From Bacillota bacterium (GTDB lineage Bacteria; Bacillota; Clostridia; Acetivibrionales; Acetivibrionaceae), in NCBI GenBank assembly GCA_023398495.1, contig JAEWSG010000225.1, positions 79,316 through 143,315 of the forward strand: a stretch of 64,000 nt of DNA. The letters run 5' to 3'. The position numbers were made by a program, and so were the translations under genes. The notes below the pieces were generated by a model. The model was not told the origin of the DNA and did no database searches. It saw nothing but the letters and a program-made list of their open reading frames with translations. This document shows positions 3,542-56,294 of the stretch, piece by piece. How positions within the stretch are numbered: the stretch's first letter is position 1; the number at the start of each line of letters is the position of its first letter.

Positions 3542-3658
3542 ATCCTGTGCAATTGGAAATAAAGTTTCTGCTCTGATTAACAAAAAAAGTTGATTTGTTG
3601 GCGTTCTTGCAATATTAAACTCGTTATTACTTGGTCAAAACTAGAACAAAACGGAGTG

Positions 3659-8513: not shown

Positions 8514-8943
8514 AAACTTTGCATTTTCATAGTACCATAAATGCCAATAATAGTCAACAATTTATTTTAAAAAATTACAAAAAAAGAGTAATAATTTGTG
8601 GATGAATTGTAAGTTAATACTATGTATTTGCTTCAGTAAAGCTTGAAATGAGCTTTAAATGCCTAAAAGCGGCAATTTGTAAGTAATTAAGTAAAGTATA
8701 GTATATTGCATGTAATTACAATAACTGACTTGTAAATGCCAAGAATTAACTGGCAATCGTAAATATAATAAAAGAATCAGATTGATTCTTTTATTATTCT
8801 GTAGTTAAAGTTTACTTGAAATAGCAACGAAGTGTTGCTGGAATTATTATACATGCAAAATTTCTTTGTTTCAGATAAAGACCTCAAAAAACTATATAGA
8901 TAGAATATATAAATCATGACCCTCATATAAATTATCTAGGTAT

Positions 8944-9042
8944 GTCTAAAAATTAAGTTACTGCTTAGGATAATGAAAAAATTTGATTTGATGGTCTTTT
9001 TACAATGTAACAACAGGAAGTTATTTATTCATTATCCCTTAG
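8944..9042 (+). repeat. Structured intergenic element, family F2, copy C. TCTAAAA lead, then GGATAATGAAAAAA … TTCATTATCC long-range stem. Sits upstream of spmA
   Basis: Aligns with 25772-25881 and 56163-56261. Compensatory C>T / G>A change in the stem relative to the other copies. Confidence 0.5.
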
Positions 9043-9072
9043 TATGTACAATGATAAGATGGGGTTTTTGAC

Positions 9073-11280: not shown

Positions 11281-11487
11281 AGTTAATCACCCAATCATTA
11301 TTATTTCCATTATATGCCTGATTAGTACAGGTATATACCATTCTTTTTAGTAAAGCTTGTATTGTGTTAACTTTTATATTAATGCTGCAATATGCATAAT
11401 GTTTTTAGAAGTGAAATTTCAGACGAAGTTTTACTTTCTGCATTCCATAGCATCCGTCGAAGGTAACCATGGGGGTCCCCTAGCGAA

Positions 11488-11520
11488 CAAGAAAATTCAT
11501 GAGCGAAGCGAATTTTCTTG
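11488..11520. other. Perfect 11-bp hairpin CAAGAAAATTC / GAATTTTCTTG. Loop ATGAGCGAAGC contains the GCGAAGC motif
   Basis: Read directly. Lies in the divergent region between the 10219-11280 gene and metG. No U-tract on either strand. Confidence 0.3.
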
Positions 11521-11677
11521 AAAAATGGACAGTATATATGTATATTAATATTATTGGAAGATTTAACGTATATGAAATTCAATAGTTTTTATAACTTAAC
11601 TTTTTGACTTTTATAAAGTAAACTATAGATAACGTACTGTCTTTAACAACGATTTATATATAAGGAGGATATAGAGG

Positions 11678-14425: not shown

Positions 14426-14521
14426 TACAGCATTTTACATAAGTAAATAATCACAAAATTATTTCCGGTTCATATACTGATAATGAATATTGTGAAAATC
14501 AGCACCGGAGGTAATTTTTTT

Positions 14522-15148
14522 ATGGAAAAAAGTAAGATTAAAAAAGAAGTGGAAATGGCTGCGACACCAAAAAAGGTTGAAAATGTTGTGACAGAGCCTG
14601 TAAAACCAATGCAGAACGGGCAACAGGCACAGCCTGTGCAGCAAATGAACCAGATGCCACAAATGAATCAGCTCCCACAAATGAACCAAATGCCACAAAT
14701 GAATCAGATGCCACAGATGAACCAAATGCCGCAAATGAATCAGATGCCACAGATGAACCAAATGCCTGAGATGAATCAATTACCACAGATGAATCAAATG
14801 CCGCAAATGATGCAAATGCCTGAAATGAATCAGATGAATCAGATGATGCAGATGGCGGAAATAAACCAGATGCCTCAGATGAATCAGGTACAACCAATTG
14901 CTCAGATGCCCCAAATGAACGCTGCACCTTATATGCCACAGGTTCAACCAATGCAATACATGCCACAGATGGCACAGGTACCTGTGATTTGTTGTCCGTA
15001 CTTAATGAATATGCAATGCCCATTGATGCAGTCTGAGTATCCTTCTATGTTACAAGGGGTATCAAATCAGAATATAAATCCTTACACGAATAACCAAAAT
15101 ATGATGAATCCATACAATATGAGTCCAAACATGGGAAATCAATATTAA
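14522..15148 (+). CDS. Low-complexity Q/M/N/P-rich protein with about 15 tandem hexapeptide (MNQMPQ) repeats and a Cys-rich C-terminus. Possible spore-coat-type protein
   Basis: 18-nt tandem DNA repeats (caaatgccacaaatgaat variants) at about 14640-14900. The ATG at 14522 has a GGAGGT RBS. The ORF-track start (14483) has none. Confidence 0.6.
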   Translation: MEKSKIKKEVEMAATPKKVENVVTEPVKPMQNGQQAQPVQQMNQMPQMNQLPQMNQMPQMNQMPQMNQMPQMNQMPQMNQMPEMNQLPQMNQMPQMMQMPEMNQMNQMMQMAEINQMPQMNQVQPIAQMPQMNAAPYMPQVQPMQYMPQMAQVPVICCPYLMNMQCPLMQSEYPSMLQGVSNQNINPYTNNQNMMNPYNMSPNMGNQY

Positions 15149-15274
15149 TAAAACAGGGAATGTTGCAAAACACGTTAACCTTACCGAAATGCAGGTGCAG
15201 ATAAAGGTTAATAATGTTTGCAGCATTCCTTGTTTTATGGGAAATGAATAAATGATAGTAAACATGTATACTAT

Positions 15275-15376
15275 ATTATAGATGAAAAACTCTAAAACTA
15301 AAATTAAATGACGTTTTTCATCTAAATTAGATAACGTTTGGGTGCCATATAGATTTGACTTTAGTGTACGTTATCT
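15275..15376 (+). repeat. Structured intergenic element, family F1, copy a. Hairpin GATGAAAAAC/GTTTTTCATC with TCTAAAAC in the loop, then hairpin AGATAACGT/ACGTTATCT
   Basis: About 90% identical to 43674-43773. Directly follows the complex terminator of the repeat-protein gene. About 120 nt upstream of the yabE ATG. Confidence 0.55.
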
Positions 15377-15495
15377 GTAGATATAGATCAAAAAAATGGC
15401 TGTTTTGTTGTGGTTTCCCAGGCGATTTGACAAAGGAACCAATTTAACTTAAAATAACCATAAGTCCCTTTAATATTTTGGACAGGAGGAGTCGG

Positions 15496-25760: not shown

Positions 25761-25771
25761 CATAAGTTTAA

Positions 25772-25881
25772 GTTCTAAAGTACATCTACAATATAAGTTT
25801 CTACGCTGGATAACAAAAAAACTTGATTTGATAAGATTTTCAAAATAGAAGAATTGGATGTCGTTTTCCGTTATCCCTAAG
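25772..25881 (+). repeat. Structured intergenic element, family F2, copy A. TCTAAAG lead; GGATAACAAAAAAAC … GTTTTCCGTTATCC stem
   Basis: Aligns with copies at 8944-9042 and 56163-56261. About 85 nt upstream of the PBP-VWA lipoprotein ATG. Confidence 0.5.
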
Positions 25882-25964
25882 TATAAAAATCACAATTGTA
25901 TTTTGCTCATTAATATACTATAGTAGTAATATGGAAATTATAATTATTTGTGAGGGAGAATAGT

Positions 25965-29661: not shown

Positions 29662-29715
29662 TTTTGTCTGGTACTTTTAACCCGAACAAAATATTGCTTT
29701 CATTTTAAAGATTTA
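29662..29715 (+). terminator. Rho-independent terminator of the three-gene PBP/VWA operon
   Basis: AAAGCAATATTTTG…CAAAATATTGCTTT (14 bp) followed by a T-rich run. Confidence 0.55.
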
Positions 29716-29821
29716 TTAAGCTATACAATTTTTTCGTCCAGAGTAGGAACTTATATTTTAGTCGTACCGTGCGCATATTATTTAAGTGAAGAAAATTATG
29801 GAATAAACATAAATTTCTGGA

Positions 29822-29852
29822 ATATTTTTCTTCACATTTATTAAATGCACCC
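29822..29852. repeat. 31-nt sequence identical to 48603-48633 (ATATTTTTCTTCACATTTATTAAATGCACCC). Forms the 3' arm of an imperfect large hairpin
   Basis: Exact identity read directly. Both copies lie at the 3' ends of convergent genes. Confidence 0.5.
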
Positions 29853-38385: not shown

Positions 38386-39144
38386 TTGGATGTGCTAAAC
38401 CTTTTGAACTTTAATAAAAATAAAGTTGGTGTTAAAACTTCTAACGACGAGTTCATTTTCAGACTAAGGCAGATCAAGGAAGGCGACAAGCAATTAAGAG
38501 AAGACTTTATATCCAGTTATACTCCTTTCATGTTAAAAACCGCATCAAATATTATAGGCAGGTATATTGATATAAAGAATAGTGATGAATACAGCATTGC
38601 ATTATCGGCATTCAACGAGGCAATAGATTGTTATGATATGACAAAAAACTATAACTTTCTTTTGTTTAGCGAACACGTTATAAAAAAGCGACTTATTGAT
38701 CATATCAGAAGAAGTAAAAGGAATAAGGAACTTCCGTTTTCTTATTTTGAAAATGACAATGAAATGCTCGAAAAATATATAATTCCAGATTCAAGTATTA
38801 CCTTTGAAGATGTTGAGATAAGGGAAGAAATTATAGAATATAAAAAAACTTTGGAAGGTTATGGTATTACATTTGTTGATTTGATATCAAACGTACCAAA
38901 ACATGAAGATTCAAGAAGACTATGCATAAGAATTGCAAAACTTCTTGCAGATGACGAAGAATTGTTTAGATTACTACAGAAGTATAAAAACATTCCAAGG
39001 ACTGAACTTAAGAAAAAGGCAAAGGTACATGGAAGAACAATAGGAAACCATAGAAAGTATATTATAGCATTATGTTTGGTATTAAAAAGTAACCTTGAGC
39101 TTTCGAAGAGATATTTAAATAGTACAGAGAAAGGAGGAAGTTAA
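38386..39144 (+). CDS. sigI: Alternative sigma factor SigI
   Basis: Region-2/region-4 pattern like B. subtilis/C. thermocellum SigI ('YTPFMLKTASN…'). TTG start with a GAAGGGAG RBS. Followed by rsgI. Confidence 0.8.
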   Translation: MDVLNLLNFNKNKVGVKTSNDEFIFRLRQIKEGDKQLREDFISSYTPFMLKTASNIIGRYIDIKNSDEYSIALSAFNEAIDCYDMTKNYNFLLFSEHVIKKRLIDHIRRSKRNKELPFSYFENDNEMLEKYIIPDSSITFEDVEIREEIIEYKKTLEGYGITFVDLISNVPKHEDSRRLCIRIAKLLADDEELFRLLQKYKNIPRTELKKKAKVHGRTIGNHRKYIIALCLVLKSNLELSKRYLNSTEKGGS

Positions 39145-39146
39145 TT

Positions 39147-40604
39147 ATGAATAACCTTGGGGTTATATACGATATTAAAAATGATAAAGCAGTTATTCTT
39201 ACACGTAACAGCAATTTTATAATGATAAGCAGGCGTGAAGACATGTTTTTAGGTCAGCAGGTAACATTTGACGATAAGGATATTTATAGACCTAAAAAAA
39301 GTATGCATAGGGTTGTTGCACTATCTGCAAGTATAGCTGCCATATTTGTACTAATGTTTTTGTTTTCTCGTTTTGAACCTGCTGGTGCCAATGTGTTTGG
39401 ATATGTTGCTTTAGACATAAATCCAAGTATGGAATTTTGTATTGATAAGGATTTTGCAGTATTGGAAGCAGTTGCACTTAATGATGATGGGGCAAAATTA
39501 ATAGATGATGTTGAGGTTAAAAATAAGACAATAGAAAGTGTTATTATAGAAATTATAAAACAATCGAAGAGTGGTGGCTATATCAAGACAGGAGAAAAGA
39601 CTGATGTCTTGATTTCGGCTACGTTTATAGATGATAAGAAGGGAAAAAGTGCCGGTAATGAAGCTGACAAGGTAAATTTAGAAAAGCTTCTGGCGGAAAT
39701 CAAGAAAGACATATATGGTTACGATAGCAGTATTGTTGGCAGAATGTTACAGGTCACCTCTATGGAAAGAGAAGCAGCACAGAAGTATGGTGTTTCTATG
39801 GGAAAATACTATTTGTTCCTTAAGTCCAAGGACCAAGGTAAAGATATATCGATTGATGAATTAAGTTATATGAAGGTAACGGAATTAATTGATGGTATTG
39901 ATATCGAAATTGAACCTCAATCTCCTATCCCTGCTAAAGATCCTCGTTATACATTGTTGCCTGACTATACATCATCAAATAAGCTCAAACCGGAACAAAT
40001 ACCTACAGGTGAGCCGTCATCAAACCAGACACTATCACCGAAGCCGGAAGTTACACCAGCTTTACCTGAACCAATTTTTACGGATGCCAATACATTCAGC
40101 CCAACCTCGATACCTACACCTTTGGTTCAGAATCCAAAGGGTGATGTTGAAAAAAAATTGAAAATCAAGCATTACAGTGATGATCACAATGCTTTCTCAA
40201 AGGCTATACGTTGGGATTTTGTTGTTGAGAATACAGGAGATAATACAATTGATTTAAAAGATGTTAAGGTTAGATATTATTATATGGATGAAACAGACAA
40301 GAGTGTGAATTTTATGCCATATTTTTATAGCCTGGGAAATGAAAAAGCAGACATTAACGGTAAGGTACAAAAAGTTTCTGGGTTAAAAAATGCCAATAGA
40401 TACCTTGAGGTAACTTTTAATAAGGGCAGTGTTTCACCGGGAGAAACTGCATGGCTTTTTGGTGCATTGGTGCGGGAAGATTGGAGCGAGTTTAACCAGA
40501 AAGATGACTATTCATTTAACTCCGAAGCAAAAACATTTTCTGATTGGAACAGAATGACTGCATATTTATCCGATAGGCTTGTTTGGGGAATTGAGCCCGA
40601 ATAA
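39147..40604 (+). CDS. rsgI: Anti-sigma-I factor RsgI with a C-terminal CBM3 sensor domain
   Basis: RsgI N-domain, single TM 'VVALSASIAAIFVLMFLF', PT-rich linker, CBM3 'VKVRYYYMDETDKSVNF…WSEFNQKDDYSFNSEAKTFSDWNRMTAYLSDRLVWG'. Confidence 0.85.
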   Translation: MNNLGVIYDIKNDKAVILTRNSNFIMISRREDMFLGQQVTFDDKDIYRPKKSMHRVVALSASIAAIFVLMFLFSRFEPAGANVFGYVALDINPSMEFCIDKDFAVLEAVALNDDGAKLIDDVEVKNKTIESVIIEIIKQSKSGGYIKTGEKTDVLISATFIDDKKGKSAGNEADKVNLEKLLAEIKKDIYGYDSSIVGRMLQVTSMEREAAQKYGVSMGKYYLFLKSKDQGKDISIDELSYMKVTELIDGIDIEIEPQSPIPAKDPRYTLLPDYTSSNKLKPEQIPTGEPSSNQTLSPKPEVTPALPEPIFTDANTFSPTSIPTPLVQNPKGDVEKKLKIKHYSDDHNAFSKAIRWDFVVENTGDNTIDLKDVKVRYYYMDETDKSVNFMPYFYSLGNEKADINGKVQKVSGLKNANRYLEVTFNKGSVSPGETAWLFGALVREDWSEFNQKDDYSFNSEAKTFSDWNRMTAYLSDRLVWGIEPE

Positions 40605-40640
40605 AATGCGGCAGGGCTTCATCCTTGCTGCATTTTATGT
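40604..40640 (+). terminator. Hairpin with G·U pairs plus a U-tract after rsgI
   Basis: AATGCGGCAGGG cttcat CCTTGCTGCATTTT. Confidence 0.45.
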
Positions 40641-40850
40641 AAATCTTTATCGTGTTTAATATAGAATTGCAACGAAAGGTAATATATGGAATGGTGTTTT
40701 AAAAATTGCTTGAAAAATTAAGTTGTAAATGCTATTATAGTAATATAAATAGAAAATGTTACTACAATCTTGCTCATAATAACTAAAGAAATAGTTGATT
40801 TGCAGAATAATTTATAAAATAATAAAGTTTTTTTATTTTTTTACTTTTAT

Positions 40851-40880
40851 ATCCCCTAAAAATTCATACTATCTACGAAT
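40851..40880 (+). promoter_or_regulatory. Candidate sigma-I-type promoter (CCCC …N19… CGAAT) far upstream of the GH48 gene
   Basis: ATCCCC at 40851-40856 and CGAAT at 40876-40880. SigmaI promoters in Bacillus/C. thermocellum have a C-rich -35 and a CGAA -10. The spacing here is not verified against the consensus. Confidence 0.25.
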
Positions 40881-41460
40881 TAATTTAGTACTAACGCAAA
40901 AGTACATAACCAACTTGTTAACAACTAATATTGTCAAGGACTTCAGGCTTTAGTTAGTCTGATTAAGAATATATAGTTTGTAAAGTAAACAATTTTCTTT
41001 TGGAGGTGGCTTTCTAAGCATAAAAATTAGTATTGTTATTGTGATATTTTGTAATATTTGGTTGTGGGGTTATAATGATTTAATCTGAATTAGTATGTTT
41101 TTGTATTTGATTGCAGTATACCTCTTGAAATTCATTTCACAAACATCTTACCCATTCTTTGTTGTATTTCAAATAACTTCCTACTATTACTTGAGATATA
41201 AACACAATTAATTGTGTTTTGGTTAAGTTAACCCGTTAGCTTAACTTTATAGCTTAAATTTTTGTGCAAGTCATTTTTATCACAGGGGGTGAAGGTAGTT
41301 TTAACTAGCGATAGTTTGCAATTCAATTGGCTTAGCTGACATGGCAAAATGTATGAACCGGTAATACCGGTGTCCTGTTAAACCGTTTTATAATTAATTT
41401 TAATGGTTTAAAGGAGTTTATTAATTATTGTTTGATTTCTGAAGGGAGGATATTTAAAAC

Positions 41461-43608
41461 ATGAAAAAAACGGCTGTATTTTTATTAGTTTTTTCATTAT
41501 TGACAGCATCGATACCAGCTGCATCAGTTAGTGCAGCATCTGGTGATGGTTACAAGGAGAAATTTACTGAGTTGTATGACGTAATACATGACCCATCAAC
41601 TGGGTACTTTGATTCAGAGGGAATACCTTATCACTCAGTTGAAACATTGTGTGTTGAAGCACCTGACTATGGTCATGAGTCAACATCCGAGGCTGCAAGT
41701 TATTATCTCTGGCTTGAGGCTATGAACGGTAAAATTAATAATGAGTGGGATGGTATAGGTAAAGCTTGGGATGTAATAGAAAAGTACTTTATTCCGTCTG
41801 ATTCAATCCAGAAGGGTATGGATAAGTATAAGTCTTCAGCACCTGGAGGATATGCTAGTGAGCACCCACTCCCAGACAACTATCCATCTATGGGAGAAAG
41901 TATAGCAGTTGGTTCAGACCCAATACACCAAGAACTGGTTTCAGCATACAACACATATTCAATGTACGGTATGCATTGGTTGGTTGACGTTGATAACTGG
42001 TATGGTTACGGAACGGGTACAGATTGTACATATATAAATACTTACCAAAGAGGAGAGCAGGAATCAGTTTTTGAAACAGTTCCTCATCCTTCAATTGAGA
42101 CCTTTAAATACGGTGGAACACAAGGATTTGCAGACCTGTTTATGGCTGGATCTACAGTTCCTAAGTGGGCATTCACTACTGCTTCGGATGCTGACGGACG
42201 TGTAATACAGGTACAGTATTGGGCAGATAAGTGGGCAGATGAAAATGGTGTTAGCTTAAGTACTTATAACGCAAAAGCTGCTAAGCTGGGTGACTACTTA
42301 AGATACTCATTGTTTGACAAATACTTCATGAAAATTGGAGCACAAGCTAAGACTCCTGCTTCAGGATATGGTTCTTGTCATTATCTCCTTGCTTGGTACT
42401 ATGCTTGGGGTGGTTCAAATACAGGTGACTGGTCATGGAAGATTGGATGTAGCCATGTTCACTGGGGTTATCAAGCTCCTTTTGCAGCTTACGTATTGGC
42501 TAATGAAGCAGACTTCAAACCAAAGTCATCAAATGGTTCTAAAGACTGGGCAACAAGTTATCAGAGACAATTGGAATTATACACATACCTGCAATCTGCA
42601 GAAGGCGGTATAGCAGGTGGAGTTACAAACTCTGTTGGAGGACAATACAAGCCTTATACTAGTAATTCAACTTTCTACGATATGGTTTATGATTACGCTC
42701 CTGTTTACCGTGACCCACCAAGTAACAACTGGTTCGGTATGCAAGCATGGTCAATGCAACGTATGTGTGAAGTTTACTATGAAACTGGAAATGAATTGGC
42801 TAAAGAGCTTTGTGACAAGTGGGTTGCTTGGGCAGAAAGTGAGTGTACAGTTTCAGGCGATACATGGAAGATTCCTTCAACGTTGTCATGGACTGGTGAG
42901 CCAGACAAGTGGACAGGTTCAAGATCAGACAATTCCAACCTTCATGTTGAAGTAGCTAATTATGGTAGTGACATAGGTATTACAGGATCAGTTTCAAATG
43001 CATTTATGTTCTACGATCAAGCTACTCAAAAGTGGGGAGGAGATACTGCATTAGGTAAGAAAGCAGCTGACAAGGCTCTTGCATTGTTGAATGTAGTATG
43101 GGATAATGCTCGTGACGAGAAAGGTGTAGGTATTACTGAATCTAACGGATCATTAAGCCGTATGTTTACACAAACAGTTTACATTCCATCAGGATGGACT
43201 GGAAAAATGCCTAATGGTGATGTAATTAAGTCTGGCATTAAGTTTATAGACATTCGTTCAAAATATAAGGATGATCCTTGGTATGAAGGCGTTAAGAACC
43301 AAACTGAGGATAATCTCTTTGAGTTCAAACTTCATAGATTCTGGCATCAGGTTGACTATGCAGTAGCTTTAGGTGTAGCTGGAATGTTCGGTTACGATGG
43401 TGGAGGTACTACTGATGCTGGTGACGTAGATGGTAACGGAAAAGTTAATGCTATTGACTTTGCGTTGATGAGACAAGATTTGCTCGGACAAATTAACTTT
43501 ACTCCTGCACAGGAGAAAGCAGCAGATGTTGATGGTAATGGAATATTCAATTCAATCGACTTTGCTAAGATGAGACAGTTCTTGCTCGGACAGATTAAAT
43601 CATTTTAA
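41461..43608 (+). CDS. Cellulosomal GH48 exoglucanase (Cel48S-like) with a C-terminal type-I dockerin
   Basis: 'GYFDSEGIPYHSVETLCVEAPDYGHESTSEAASYYLWLEAM' is a GH48 signature. Dockerin 'DVDGNGKVNAIDFALMRQDLLG' and 'DVDGNGIFNSIDFAKMRQFLLG'. Signal peptide. GGGAGGA RBS. Confidence 0.9.
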   Translation: MKKTAVFLLVFSLLTASIPAASVSAASGDGYKEKFTELYDVIHDPSTGYFDSEGIPYHSVETLCVEAPDYGHESTSEAASYYLWLEAMNGKINNEWDGIGKAWDVIEKYFIPSDSIQKGMDKYKSSAPGGYASEHPLPDNYPSMGESIAVGSDPIHQELVSAYNTYSMYGMHWLVDVDNWYGYGTGTDCTYINTYQRGEQESVFETVPHPSIETFKYGGTQGFADLFMAGSTVPKWAFTTASDADGRVIQVQYWADKWADENGVSLSTYNAKAAKLGDYLRYSLFDKYFMKIGAQAKTPASGYGSCHYLLAWYYAWGGSNTGDWSWKIGCSHVHWGYQAPFAAYVLANEADFKPKSSNGSKDWATSYQRQLELYTYLQSAEGGIAGGVTNSVGGQYKPYTSNSTFYDMVYDYAPVYRDPPSNNWFGMQAWSMQRMCEVYYETGNELAKELCDKWVAWAESECTVSGDTWKIPSTLSWTGEPDKWTGSRSDNSNLHVEVANYGSDIGITGSVSNAFMFYDQATQKWGGDTALGKKAADKALALLNVVWDNARDEKGVGITESNGSLSRMFTQTVYIPSGWTGKMPNGDVIKSGIKFIDIRSKYKDDPWYEGVKNQTEDNLFEFKLHRFWHQVDYAVALGVAGMFGYDGGGTTDAGDVDGNGKVNAIDFALMRQDLLGQINFTPAQEKAADVDGNGIFNSIDFAKMRQFLLGQIKSF

Positions 43609-43634: not shown

Positions 43635-43674
43635 AGCAGGAGTTTAAGCATTTAGCTTGAACTCCTGCTTTTTA
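43635..43674 (+). terminator. Rho-independent terminator of the GH48 gene
   Basis: AGCAGGAGTT…AACTCCTGCT followed by TTTTT. Confidence 0.7.
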
Positions 43675-43773
43675 TTATAGATGAAAACCTCAAAACTAAA
43701 ATTTAAGGACGTTTTTCATCTAAATTAGATAACGTTTGGATGCTATATAAATTTAACTTTGTGTACGTTATCT
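43674..43773 (+). repeat. Structured intergenic element, family F1, copy b
   Basis: About 90% identical to 15275-15376. Same two hairpins (GATGAAAAC/GTTTTTCATC; AGATAACGT/ACGTTATCT). Begins in the terminator U-tract. Confidence 0.55.
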
Positions 43774-44053
43774 ATATTTATGAACTATAGATTTATGTAA
43801 TTATGTTTGCTAAAAAACATACTTTTTGAGAAGAATAGCATAATATAGATAATGTACACTAAAGTTAAATAAATTGAATTGATATATACTGGCAGTATAA
43901 GGGAAGTGGCAGACAAAAAGAGATAAATTATATTAGTTTTTTTAGAATAAATTATTAAAATTATTAGTATTATCATAAATTTATATGATTTTATGACGAA
44001 ATATAGTATAATATAAAAAAATGTGTCTATGCCAATAAAATAGGAGTGAATTT

Positions 44054-48602: not shown

Positions 48603-48633
48603 ATATTTTTCTTCACATTTATTAAATGCACCC
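48603..48633. repeat. Second copy of the 31-nt repeat (see 29822-29852), inside the hairpin GGGTGCAT…ATGCACCC
   Basis: Exact identity. The hairpin at 48598-48633 is followed by GTTATTTATT and may terminate dut. Confidence 0.5.
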
Positions 48634-56123: not shown

Positions 56124-56151
56124 TTGCAAATTGGCTTTTCTGGGTTATAAT
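56124..56151 (+). promoter_or_regulatory. SigmaA-like promoter TTGCAA-N16-TATAAT. Transcript would start about 5 nt before element F2-B
   Basis: Read directly. Confidence 0.35.
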
Positions 56152-56162
56152 AAATAAGGTAC

Positions 56163-56261
56163 TTCTAAAATATAAGTCCCTACTCTGGATAACGAAAAAA
56201 CTTGATTTGATAGTGTTATCAAAATACGAGGAGTAGATGTTGTTTTTTCGTTATCCTTAAG
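56163..56261 (+). repeat. Structured intergenic element, family F2, copy B. GGATAACGAAAAAAC … GTTTTTTCGTTATCC (15-bp stem) with an alternative proximal GTTATC partner
   Basis: Aligns with 8944-9042 and 25772-25881. 34 nt upstream of the yigZ start. Confidence 0.5.
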
Positions 56262-56294
56262 ATGAATAATCTCATATTATAAAAGGTGGTTAAA

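Follow-up and report, generated by a model that had tools for sequence, protein, structure and literature searches.

The window analysed here is a stretch of 64,000 nt of contig JAEWSG010000225.1 (positions 79,316 to 143,315, forward strand; assembly GCA_023398495.1) from a bacterium of the Acetivibrionaceae, which ZapA and YabE homologues put beside Acetivibrio cellulolyticus. It contains two full copies of an intergenic repeat of about 100 bp, F1, which is the subject of this report. Including the flanking TA dinucleotides, copy A occupies 15277-15379 (+ strand), between an open reading frame (ORF) coding for a QMN-repeat protein and yabE, and copy B occupies 43676-43776 (+ strand), between the gene of a GH48 cellulase and zapA. 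A sequence-only reading of the window had described the pair as near-identical double-hairpin elements of ~100 nt, and this was confirmed by alignment at 84-88% identity, with the named stems folding as proposed. The two intervals are 86-90% identical; single alignments gave 88% over 77 ungapped nt (repeat finder pair D6), 86% over the full element with gaps counted, and 84% over a wider stretch of 184 columns (15240-15420 vs. 43640-43820). The conserved block of ~100 nt starts with TATTATAGATG, ends with GTTATCT and has sharp edges, beyond which copies A and B lie in unrelated sequence.

In copy A, the element proper (15279..15377, + strand, 99 nt, TAGATGAAAAAC…ACGTTATCTG) was delimited from sequence, fold, and orthologous empty and decayed sites, while its flanking TAs (15277..15278 and 15378..15379) were identified as the two halves of a target-site duplication by comparing empty and filled sites. 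Its hairpin 1 is formed by the arms 15279-15290 and 15313-15324 and its hairpin 2 by 15328-15337 and 15368-15377 (+ strand). Copy B, delimited from sequence, fold, and absence in relatives, has an element proper of 97 nt (43678..43774, + strand, TAGATGAAAACC…ACGTTATCTA) and flanking TAs at 43676..43677 and 43775..43776. Each copy forms the two hairpins GATGAAAAAC/GTTTTTCATC and GATAACGT/ACGTTATC on either strand, with ΔG values of -23.4 and -21.8 kcal/mol on the + strand for the two copies (z = -2.8 vs. shuffles) and z-scores of -4.4 and -5.3 against shuffles on the - strand. Both copies had also been described as lying directly after terminators. This is true of copy B, whose insertion TA sits inside the T-tract tail of the intrinsic GH48 terminator, which is itself outside the element (43635..43669, + strand, 15-pair stem followed by the T-tract). 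It does not hold for copy A, which begins ~40 nt past a long imperfect hairpin 3' of the QMN-repeat ORF that was not scored as a terminator by the terminator scan.

F1 is not an accident of two copies, since 27 full copies were found in three genomes. A scan for the core 21-mer TTTCATCTAAATTAGATAACG across one genome per species (GTDB representatives) gave 27 matches, of which 25 were true F1 copies in two other genomes: 22 copies on 20 contigs of the metagenome-assembled genome (MAG) Bacillota bacterium OH_PDB_83, and 3 copies in a MAG named 'uncultured Acetivibrio sp.' (the Acetivibrio MAG below). The other two matches, in an archaeon and an Omnitrophota genome, were rejected as chance, having only the 21-mer in common with F1. 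The 27-copy set used throughout comprises these 22 and 3 copies and the two full copies of the window, which scored 90.8 bits (copy A) and 80.4 bits (copy B) with nhmmer against the F1 family profile. The OH_PDB_83 copies have a mean pairwise identity of 96%, the three copies of the Acetivibrio MAG are 73-82% identical among themselves, and 86-89% identity was measured between the window copies and those of OH_PDB_83. In Logan contigs from the window's own sample, contigs start or stop inside F1 at both loci, which suggests that F1 is repeated in the window's genome too. Contig breaks inside an element are typical of repeats that short reads cannot bridge.

Two of the sampled loci, L005 (Acetivibrio MAG) and L026 (OH_PDB_83), are syntenic over a block of six ORFs with 54-92% protein identity (most ~75%). 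F1 lies in different intergenic gaps and in opposite orientation at these two loci, indicating independent insertions in the two species. In OH_PDB_83, the left half of F1 (profile positions 1-60, E = 4e-9) was also seen on its own at L014 3602-3660, 1.1 kb from a full copy, so truncated F1 occurs in that genome as well. The F1 consensus had no match in phage and plasmid collections (blastn in distant mode), and a scan of viral contigs for F1 gave 0 matches.

The consensus of the family is TA-TAGATGAAAAACTCTAAAACTAAATTTTAAAGGAAGTTTTTCATCTAAATTAGATAACGTTTAAGTGCTATATAAATTTAAC TTTAGTGTACGTTATCTA-TA, and its boundaries, TA-TAGATGAAAAAC…ACGTTATCTA-TA, are sharp: in the in-register alignment, conservation is >90% as far as TATAGATG at the left end and ATCTATA at the right end, and drops to background precisely there. 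F1 is 100-104 bp long, carries stops in each of the six frames, and is poor in G+C (22 of 104 consensus bases, 21%). The ends, TAGATGA… on the left and …TTATCTA on the right, form terminal inverted repeats (TIRs) that are perfect over 7 bp (TATAGAT…ATCTATA) and match at 12 of 17 positions further in. The same motif, TAGATRA/TYATCTA, is also the foot of both consensus hairpins, TAGATGAAAAAC/GTTTTTCATCTA and TAGATAACGT/ACGTTATCTA, which are separated by a spacer of 3 nt (AAT), so that it occurs four times in alternating orientation. The full TATA is kept at both ends in 23 of the 27 copies, and the outermost TA in 26/27 on the left and 27/27 on the right. The left flank across the family is mostly ACTA or TTA before TAGATG, and the third base after the right TA is T in 24 of the 27 copies. 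By inspection of each copy, no match between left and right flank past TATA was found that would indicate a longer target duplication. F1 was also considered as an intrinsic terminator and rejected, as no terminator was called inside it and its stems are AT-rich with no T-run. On neither strand does a T-run stand 3' of either hairpin: AATTAG comes after hairpin 1 and TATWT after hairpin 2.

Every one of the 27 copies lies in intergenic DNA. With respect to the closest long ORFs, 15 are in tandem with the same orientation, 9 in tandem with the opposite orientation, 1 is in a convergent gap and 2 are in divergent gaps. The suggestion that F1 always abuts terminators failed when it was checked. 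A strict terminator reading into F1 within 100 nt was present at 2/27 copies, namely window copy B (6 nt upstream) and the copy at L026 (32 nt from the other end), and a terminator of any orientation within 100 nt at 4/27; the strict detector disallows bulges, so these counts miss imperfect hairpins such as the one before copy A. An outward sigma-70-like site with at least 9/12 matches was created at the right junction in 4 of the 27 copies (e.g., TTAACT-17-TATATT), and an outward promoter was accordingly dismissed as a trait of the family. The TATTAT that had been proposed as a conserved 5' edge and possible -10 box belongs to the flank; it lies outside the element and is not conserved in the family.

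Orthologous loci were obtained from four related lineages, a lineage termed rel1 (L031-L036), the Acetivibrio MAG, ADurb.Bin419, and A. cellulolyticus, via proteins at least 90% identical to the YabE and GH48 proteins of the window and via close ZapA homologues. Locus A is the spacer between the QMN-repeat ORF and yabE; in the Acetivibrio MAG (L048) and in ADurb.Bin419 (L049) it is 250 nt long and lacks F1. The empty site reads …ATGTATAGAATAT-TA-ATTGTGGAGCAAG… (ATAT-TA-ATTGTGG), and the filled site of the window reads …ATGTATACTATAT-TA-(TAGATG…TTATCTG)-TA-GATATAGATCAAA… (ATAT-TA-element-TA-GATATAG), with flanks that align between empty and filled sites without any indel. Where the empty site has a single TA, the window has one TA to the left and one to the right of the element, which is a 2-bp TA target-site duplication. 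A 4-bp TATA duplication was rejected, since there is no TATA in the empty site ATATTAATTG. In rel1, a decayed F1 was found at the same position of locus A. It shares the derived right end ATCTG with the window, so the copy at this locus was inherited. In the rel1 copy, 4 nt of the left arm are deleted and 17 nt are inserted, and neither hairpin is intact. The identity between the window and rel1 is 53% in the element, 71% in the upstream spacer and 81% in the downstream spacer; the inherited copy is decaying faster than the flanking intergenic DNA. Downstream of F1, a promoter-like site of yabE (TTGACA-17-TAAAAT, 15427-15455) and the leader are invariant in all four lineages, whether F1 is present or absent. 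At locus B, between GH48 and zapA, F1 is present in the window alone and absent in rel1, the Acetivibrio MAG, ADurb.Bin419, and A. cellulolyticus. The GH48 terminator, …GAACTCCTGCTTTTT, is conserved in all of these F1-less relatives, where it runs straight into other sequence.

Near copy B lies a 5'-truncated, inverted F1 copy (43844..43885, - strand) that keeps ~30 nt of the right end (GATAATGTACACTAAAGTTAAAT) and was recognized from inverted repeat I6, blastn-short and the relatives. Positions 43844-43870 repeat the F1 right end in inverted form and could pair with copy B to form a hairpin of ~29 bp, and blastn-short matched the truncated copy at 89-97% to F1 right ends at 21 other loci. It is a 38-nt insertion (43848-43885) compared with rel1, where CATAATATA runs uninterrupted into ATACTGG; the site is likewise uninterrupted in the Acetivibrio MAG and Bin419 (CATATTATA directly followed by ATACTGTC). 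The TATA at 43844-43847 beside the truncated copy is target DNA that was present before the insertion. A stretch of ~40-45 nt next to the truncated copy (43803-43843, …AAACATACTTTTTGAGAAGAATAGCATAATATA) was also seen beside an F1 right end at L022 5409-5450 in a distant MAG, with 87% identity over a 69-nt match that includes the F1 end. It is present in rel1 without F1, and could represent either a favoured target for insertion or a further small repeat. A possible decayed remnant of an F1 right end, noted with low confidence, lies at 11622..11665 (- strand), immediately 5' of the metG ribosome-binding site; it consists of the exact 14-mer TATAGATAACGTAC followed by weak resemblance, and gave no nhmmer match with the F1 profile at E<=10. 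A search for further solitary F1 ends returned only the truncated copy, this possible remnant at ~11624, and chance matches.

These results indicate that F1 is very probably a mobile repeat of the miniature inverted-repeat transposable element (MITE) type. Bacterial MITEs are described as shorter than 200 bp, with TIRs, 5'-TA-3' termini, A+T-rich sequence, and target-site duplication (PMC2229807). Of the criteria for such elements (Delihas, 2008), F1 shows small size without coding capacity, TIRs, TA termini with A+T-rich sequence, target-site duplication, dispersed similar copies, and insertion polymorphism at two loci. Together with the neutral decay in rel1, these properties agree with the description of bacterial MITEs. 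Taken as a whole, the explanation that we consider likely is that F1 is a non-coding, AT-rich, non-autonomous MITE of ~100 bp. A transposase encoded elsewhere in the genome would bind the F1 ends, probably through the TAGATRA motif, excise or copy the element, and insert it at TA dinucleotides in AT-rich intergenic DNA. TA duplication, found here at one site together with a TA beside nearly every copy, is a hallmark of the IS630/Tc1-mariner family. For this reason, the enzyme would most likely be a DDE transposase of that type acting in trans, and we put the chance of an IS630-type mobilizing enzyme at about even. The two hairpins would then be a by-product of repeated inverted binding motifs and not an RNA structure under selection, and the positions after terminators or before gene starts would be those where AT-rich TA targets lie and insertions are tolerated.

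Several observations weigh against this interpretation. The perfect part of the TIR is short (7-9 bp), and the flanks are asymmetric (A-Y precedes the left TA, T-W-T follows the right TA), where a symmetric DDE target would be expected. The TA duplication was read from one clean filled/empty pair, at locus A; locus B is compatible with it, but the junction there is blurred, as the following 30-45 nt are diverged and AT-rich. The conservation of the inner arms is an effect of ascertainment, given that 21 central bases were fixed by the scan, and the covariation test described below is weak. Neither an autonomous partner element nor a transposase with ends like those of F1 turned up in the window ORFs, the ~280 kb of sampled loci, or the JGI metagenomes. 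Specifically, Pfam detected no transposase domain in the 20 window ORFs scanned (including all long minus-strand ORFs), all-against-all blastp detected no multi-copy ORF in the ~280 kb of loci L001-L027 and the window, and no longer element carrying hairpin 1 was seen in the JGI metagenomes. The host MAGs were sampled through the 21-mer pattern scan. The metagenome pattern, TAGATGAAAAAC-N18-30-GTTTTTCATCTA, represented hairpin 1 alone and was aimed at a parent element whose hairpins would enclose a gene; its matches were one true F1 (L015) and five perfect palindromes that have no relation to F1. The fourfold motif, the asymmetric flanks and the 45-nt neighbouring stretch are not explained by a simple MITE model and give a modest chance to an HUH-type mechanism or to co-option of F1 at some loci, and an added RNA-level effect may exist at some of them.

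The proposal that F1 is a functional RNA or promoter element following terminators, i.e., a small RNA (sRNA) gene or a promoter-plus-leader cassette with functional hairpins, had been suggested by the sequence-only reading, and we now consider it very improbable. It is in line with the fold of both copies, which is more stable than that of shuffles (z = -2.8 to -5.3), with the 15 of the 24 tandem copies that point to the gene downstream, in many cases at 30-100 nt from its start, and with the 4/27 copies that create an outward sigma-70-like site. However, the other 9 of the 24 tandem copies are reversed, and changes in the stems are disruptive. When the two-hairpin structure was counted over the 27-copy alignment, 97% of the 504 cells paired, 3 of them being wobble (G-U) pairs, with 1 compensatory cell against 15 broken ones; the 97% only reflects the consensus. 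The structure-conserving variation looked for among genome-wide copies was thus absent beyond that single compensatory cell, an outcome that the sequence-only reading had itself named as refuting its proposal. The covariation score of 0.019 was inside the range of slid controls (0.008-0.022), in a test whose power is low, given the youth of the copies and the 21 central columns that the search pattern kept constant. Nothing in the base-pair data points to selection on the F1 structure. Neither a fixed orientation nor conservation at orthologous loci, as would be expected of an sRNA or leader, was found. Rather, close relatives lack F1 and yet keep the promoter-like sites and leaders downstream of its position, and the copy that was inherited is decaying. 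The near-identity of the 22 copies in one genome reflects recent spread and not selection. The lack of conservation of TATTAT, and of any T-run after the hairpins, also speaks against an RNA or promoter function, as does the lack of an Rfam match at the gathering score in the whole window; at E<=1 on locus A, the best hits (E = 0.16-0.29) were to unrelated families. Chance resemblance of copies A and B, or a recent segmental duplication, is refuted: nothing beyond the initial observation of two copies spoke for it, the flanks are unrelated up to the element ends, and 25 further copies exist elsewhere.

An unlikely mechanism is that F1 is a palindromic repeat moved as single-stranded DNA by an HUH/Y1 enzyme, either as an end-fusion derivative of IS200/IS605 or as a REP/REPIN-like element with a RAYT, in which the hairpins would be recognition structures. 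The two strong subterminal hairpins with the common foot TAGATRA/TYATCTA, 3 nt apart, would fit a left end fused to a right end, and the asymmetric flank preference and the very short classical TIR would fit as well. This mechanism is opposed by the true inverted repeats at the ends and the TA on both sides, with one TA of the empty site becoming two, and by the variable bases before the left TA, which do not form a fixed short target. In addition, the 15:9 gene orientation is weak for a lagging-strand mechanism, and the scan for hairpin 1 without hairpin 2 gave no longer element. It is similarly doubtful, though conceivable, that F1 is a MITE by origin of which some copies have been co-opted by the host as outward hybrid promoters, as mRNA-stabilizing 3' or 5' stem-loops, or as RNase III processing sites. 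Copies between tandem genes do lie within likely transcription units, the stems are stable whichever strand is folded, there are a few promoter-like junctions, and the third-base T in 24/27 copies is unexplained; yet there is no sign of selection and no covariation, the one inherited copy is decaying, and the promoter-like junctions amount to 4/27. Because the fourfold TAGATRA, the asymmetric flanks, the missing partner insertion sequence and the recurrent 45-nt neighbour are unexplained, a further reading was considered and given little probability, namely that F1 is a two-module palindromic element, each hairpin of which (TAGATGAAAAAC…GTTTTTCATCTA and TAGATAACGT…ACGTTATCTA) would be recognized by an uncharacterized enzyme of cellulolytic clostridia, or that a subset of copies near housekeeping and cellulosome genes would have been co-opted as RNA stem-loops or outward promoters.

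A second dispersed intergenic repeat, F2 (110-130 nt), is present in the window, OH_PDB_83, and the Acetivibrio MAG. In the window, it has full copies at 8928-9055, 25766-25898, and 56146-56277 and partial copies at 3557-3617 and 29697-29772 (- strand), and it was also found at L005, L010, L013, L015, L024, and L043. It forms a long hairpin, GGATAACGAAAAAAC/GTTTTTTCGTTATCC, whose arms vary in an apparently compensatory way (GGATAAT…CATTATCC in one copy), and its copies are followed by genes that have no relation to one another (DUF327, a Gate-domain protein, a VWA protein, and UPF0029). F1 and F2 had been grouped into one superfamily on the basis of shared motifs, a grouping that our comparison does not support. 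The F1 profile matches no F2 copy and the F2 profile no F1 copy, and homology was rejected by Smith-Waterman alignment in both orientations against 1000 shuffles (p = 0.32-0.95). The best shared piece, GATTTGA…TAGTGT, scored 17, where shuffles averaged 16 and reached 26 at most.

Other repeats were seen in the same DNA. A G+C-rich repeat of ~75 nt (AGCATCCGTCGAAGG.AACCAT.GGG.TCCCTAGCGAACAAGAAAATTCATGAGCGAAGCGAATTTTCTTGA) lies at 11448-11521, upstream of metG, and recurs at L050 2688-2760 with 70/73 aligned bases identical over 74 columns with one gap. The GH48-zapA spacer of the Acetivibrio MAG is longer by a segment of several hundred nt (estimated by eye), and the L050 copy is inside this segment. 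As the two loci are not orthologous, this repeat is probably another small mobile element. A further repeat family occurs at 2668-2810, 29773-29851, and 48603-48633 of the window and at L015 2554-2743 and 5412-5604. Positions 29822-29852 and 48603-48633 share an identical stretch of 31 nt, and longer matches (71-94%) connect the family to the two copies at L015 in the Acetivibrio MAG. F1, F2 and at least two more small repeats in the window suggest that this clade is unusually rich in small intergenic mobile repeats.

Among the genes of the two loci, the Q/M/N-rich ORF upstream of copy A (14483-15148) contains eighteen overlapping tandem repeats with an 18-nt period (14591-14976); it has no Pfam match, and its product ranges from 164 to 221 aa across the relatives. 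Upstream of copy B, the region 38386-43608 codes for a putative sigma factor (252 aa), followed by an RsgI-like anti-sigma factor with a CBM3 and the dockerin-bearing GH48 cellulase. The orthologue of the sigma factor at L037 gave a weak Sigma70_r2 match. We take these genes to resemble the biomass-sensing sigI-rsgI modules of cellulosome-producing clostridia.

Literature searches gave no description of such a MITE in Clostridium or Acetivibrio, and there is none in Rfam; F1 is a previously undescribed family of a well-known kind of element. As biology it is therefore of an expected kind, and its value is mostly practical. Once F1 is recognized, its hairpins need no longer be mistaken for sRNAs, riboswitch-like leaders, or terminators when cellulolytic clostridia of the Acetivibrio type are annotated, and the breaks of short-read assemblies at these points in such organisms are accounted for. 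Its insertion polymorphisms are markers with which close strains in anaerobic digesters can be separated. Where F1 lies beside cellulosome genes, as in the sigI-rsgI-GH48 cluster, it may occasionally affect their expression.

Several known systems can be compared with F1. REP/REPIN elements and palindromes derived from IS200/IS605 are likewise short, intergenic, and able to form stable hairpins. They are not known to have TIRs or to make a target duplication, both of which are present in F1. For Correia elements (NEMIS) of Neisseria, functional promoters and processing by RNase III have been reported, neither of which was observed for F1. They resemble F1 in small size (about 107-155 bp), terminal TA with target-site duplication, position near genes, and predicted stem-loops in transcripts, but they have a TIR of 24 bp and in some cases an IHF site (PMC2229807), neither of which was seen in F1, and the hosts belong to different phyla. 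The TIR of F1 is short but of a length comparable to those of RUP (9 bp) and ERIC (7 bp; PMC2229807). Elements of the IS630/Tc1-mariner family such as ISY100 are listed with a TA-dinucleotide target (PMC2170065), as is seen in F1 at its empty site; unlike them, F1 encodes no transposase, and its status as a derivative is deduced from the duplication alone. The closest analogue of F1, judged by these likenesses, is RUP of Streptococcus pneumoniae, an element of 107 bp with a 9-bp TIR, TA-containing targets, and IS630-Spn1 as its proposed mover (PMC2229807). The TIRs of RUP match this partner, whereas none was found for F1, and F1 has two separate hairpins that reuse the end motif instead of one long stem, with no established sequence similarity between the two. 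Like F1, RUP is an AT-rich, non-coding element of ~100 bp with stops in all frames, a short TIR, and TA target duplication, and it is intergenic and present in many near-identical copies in a Firmicute host.

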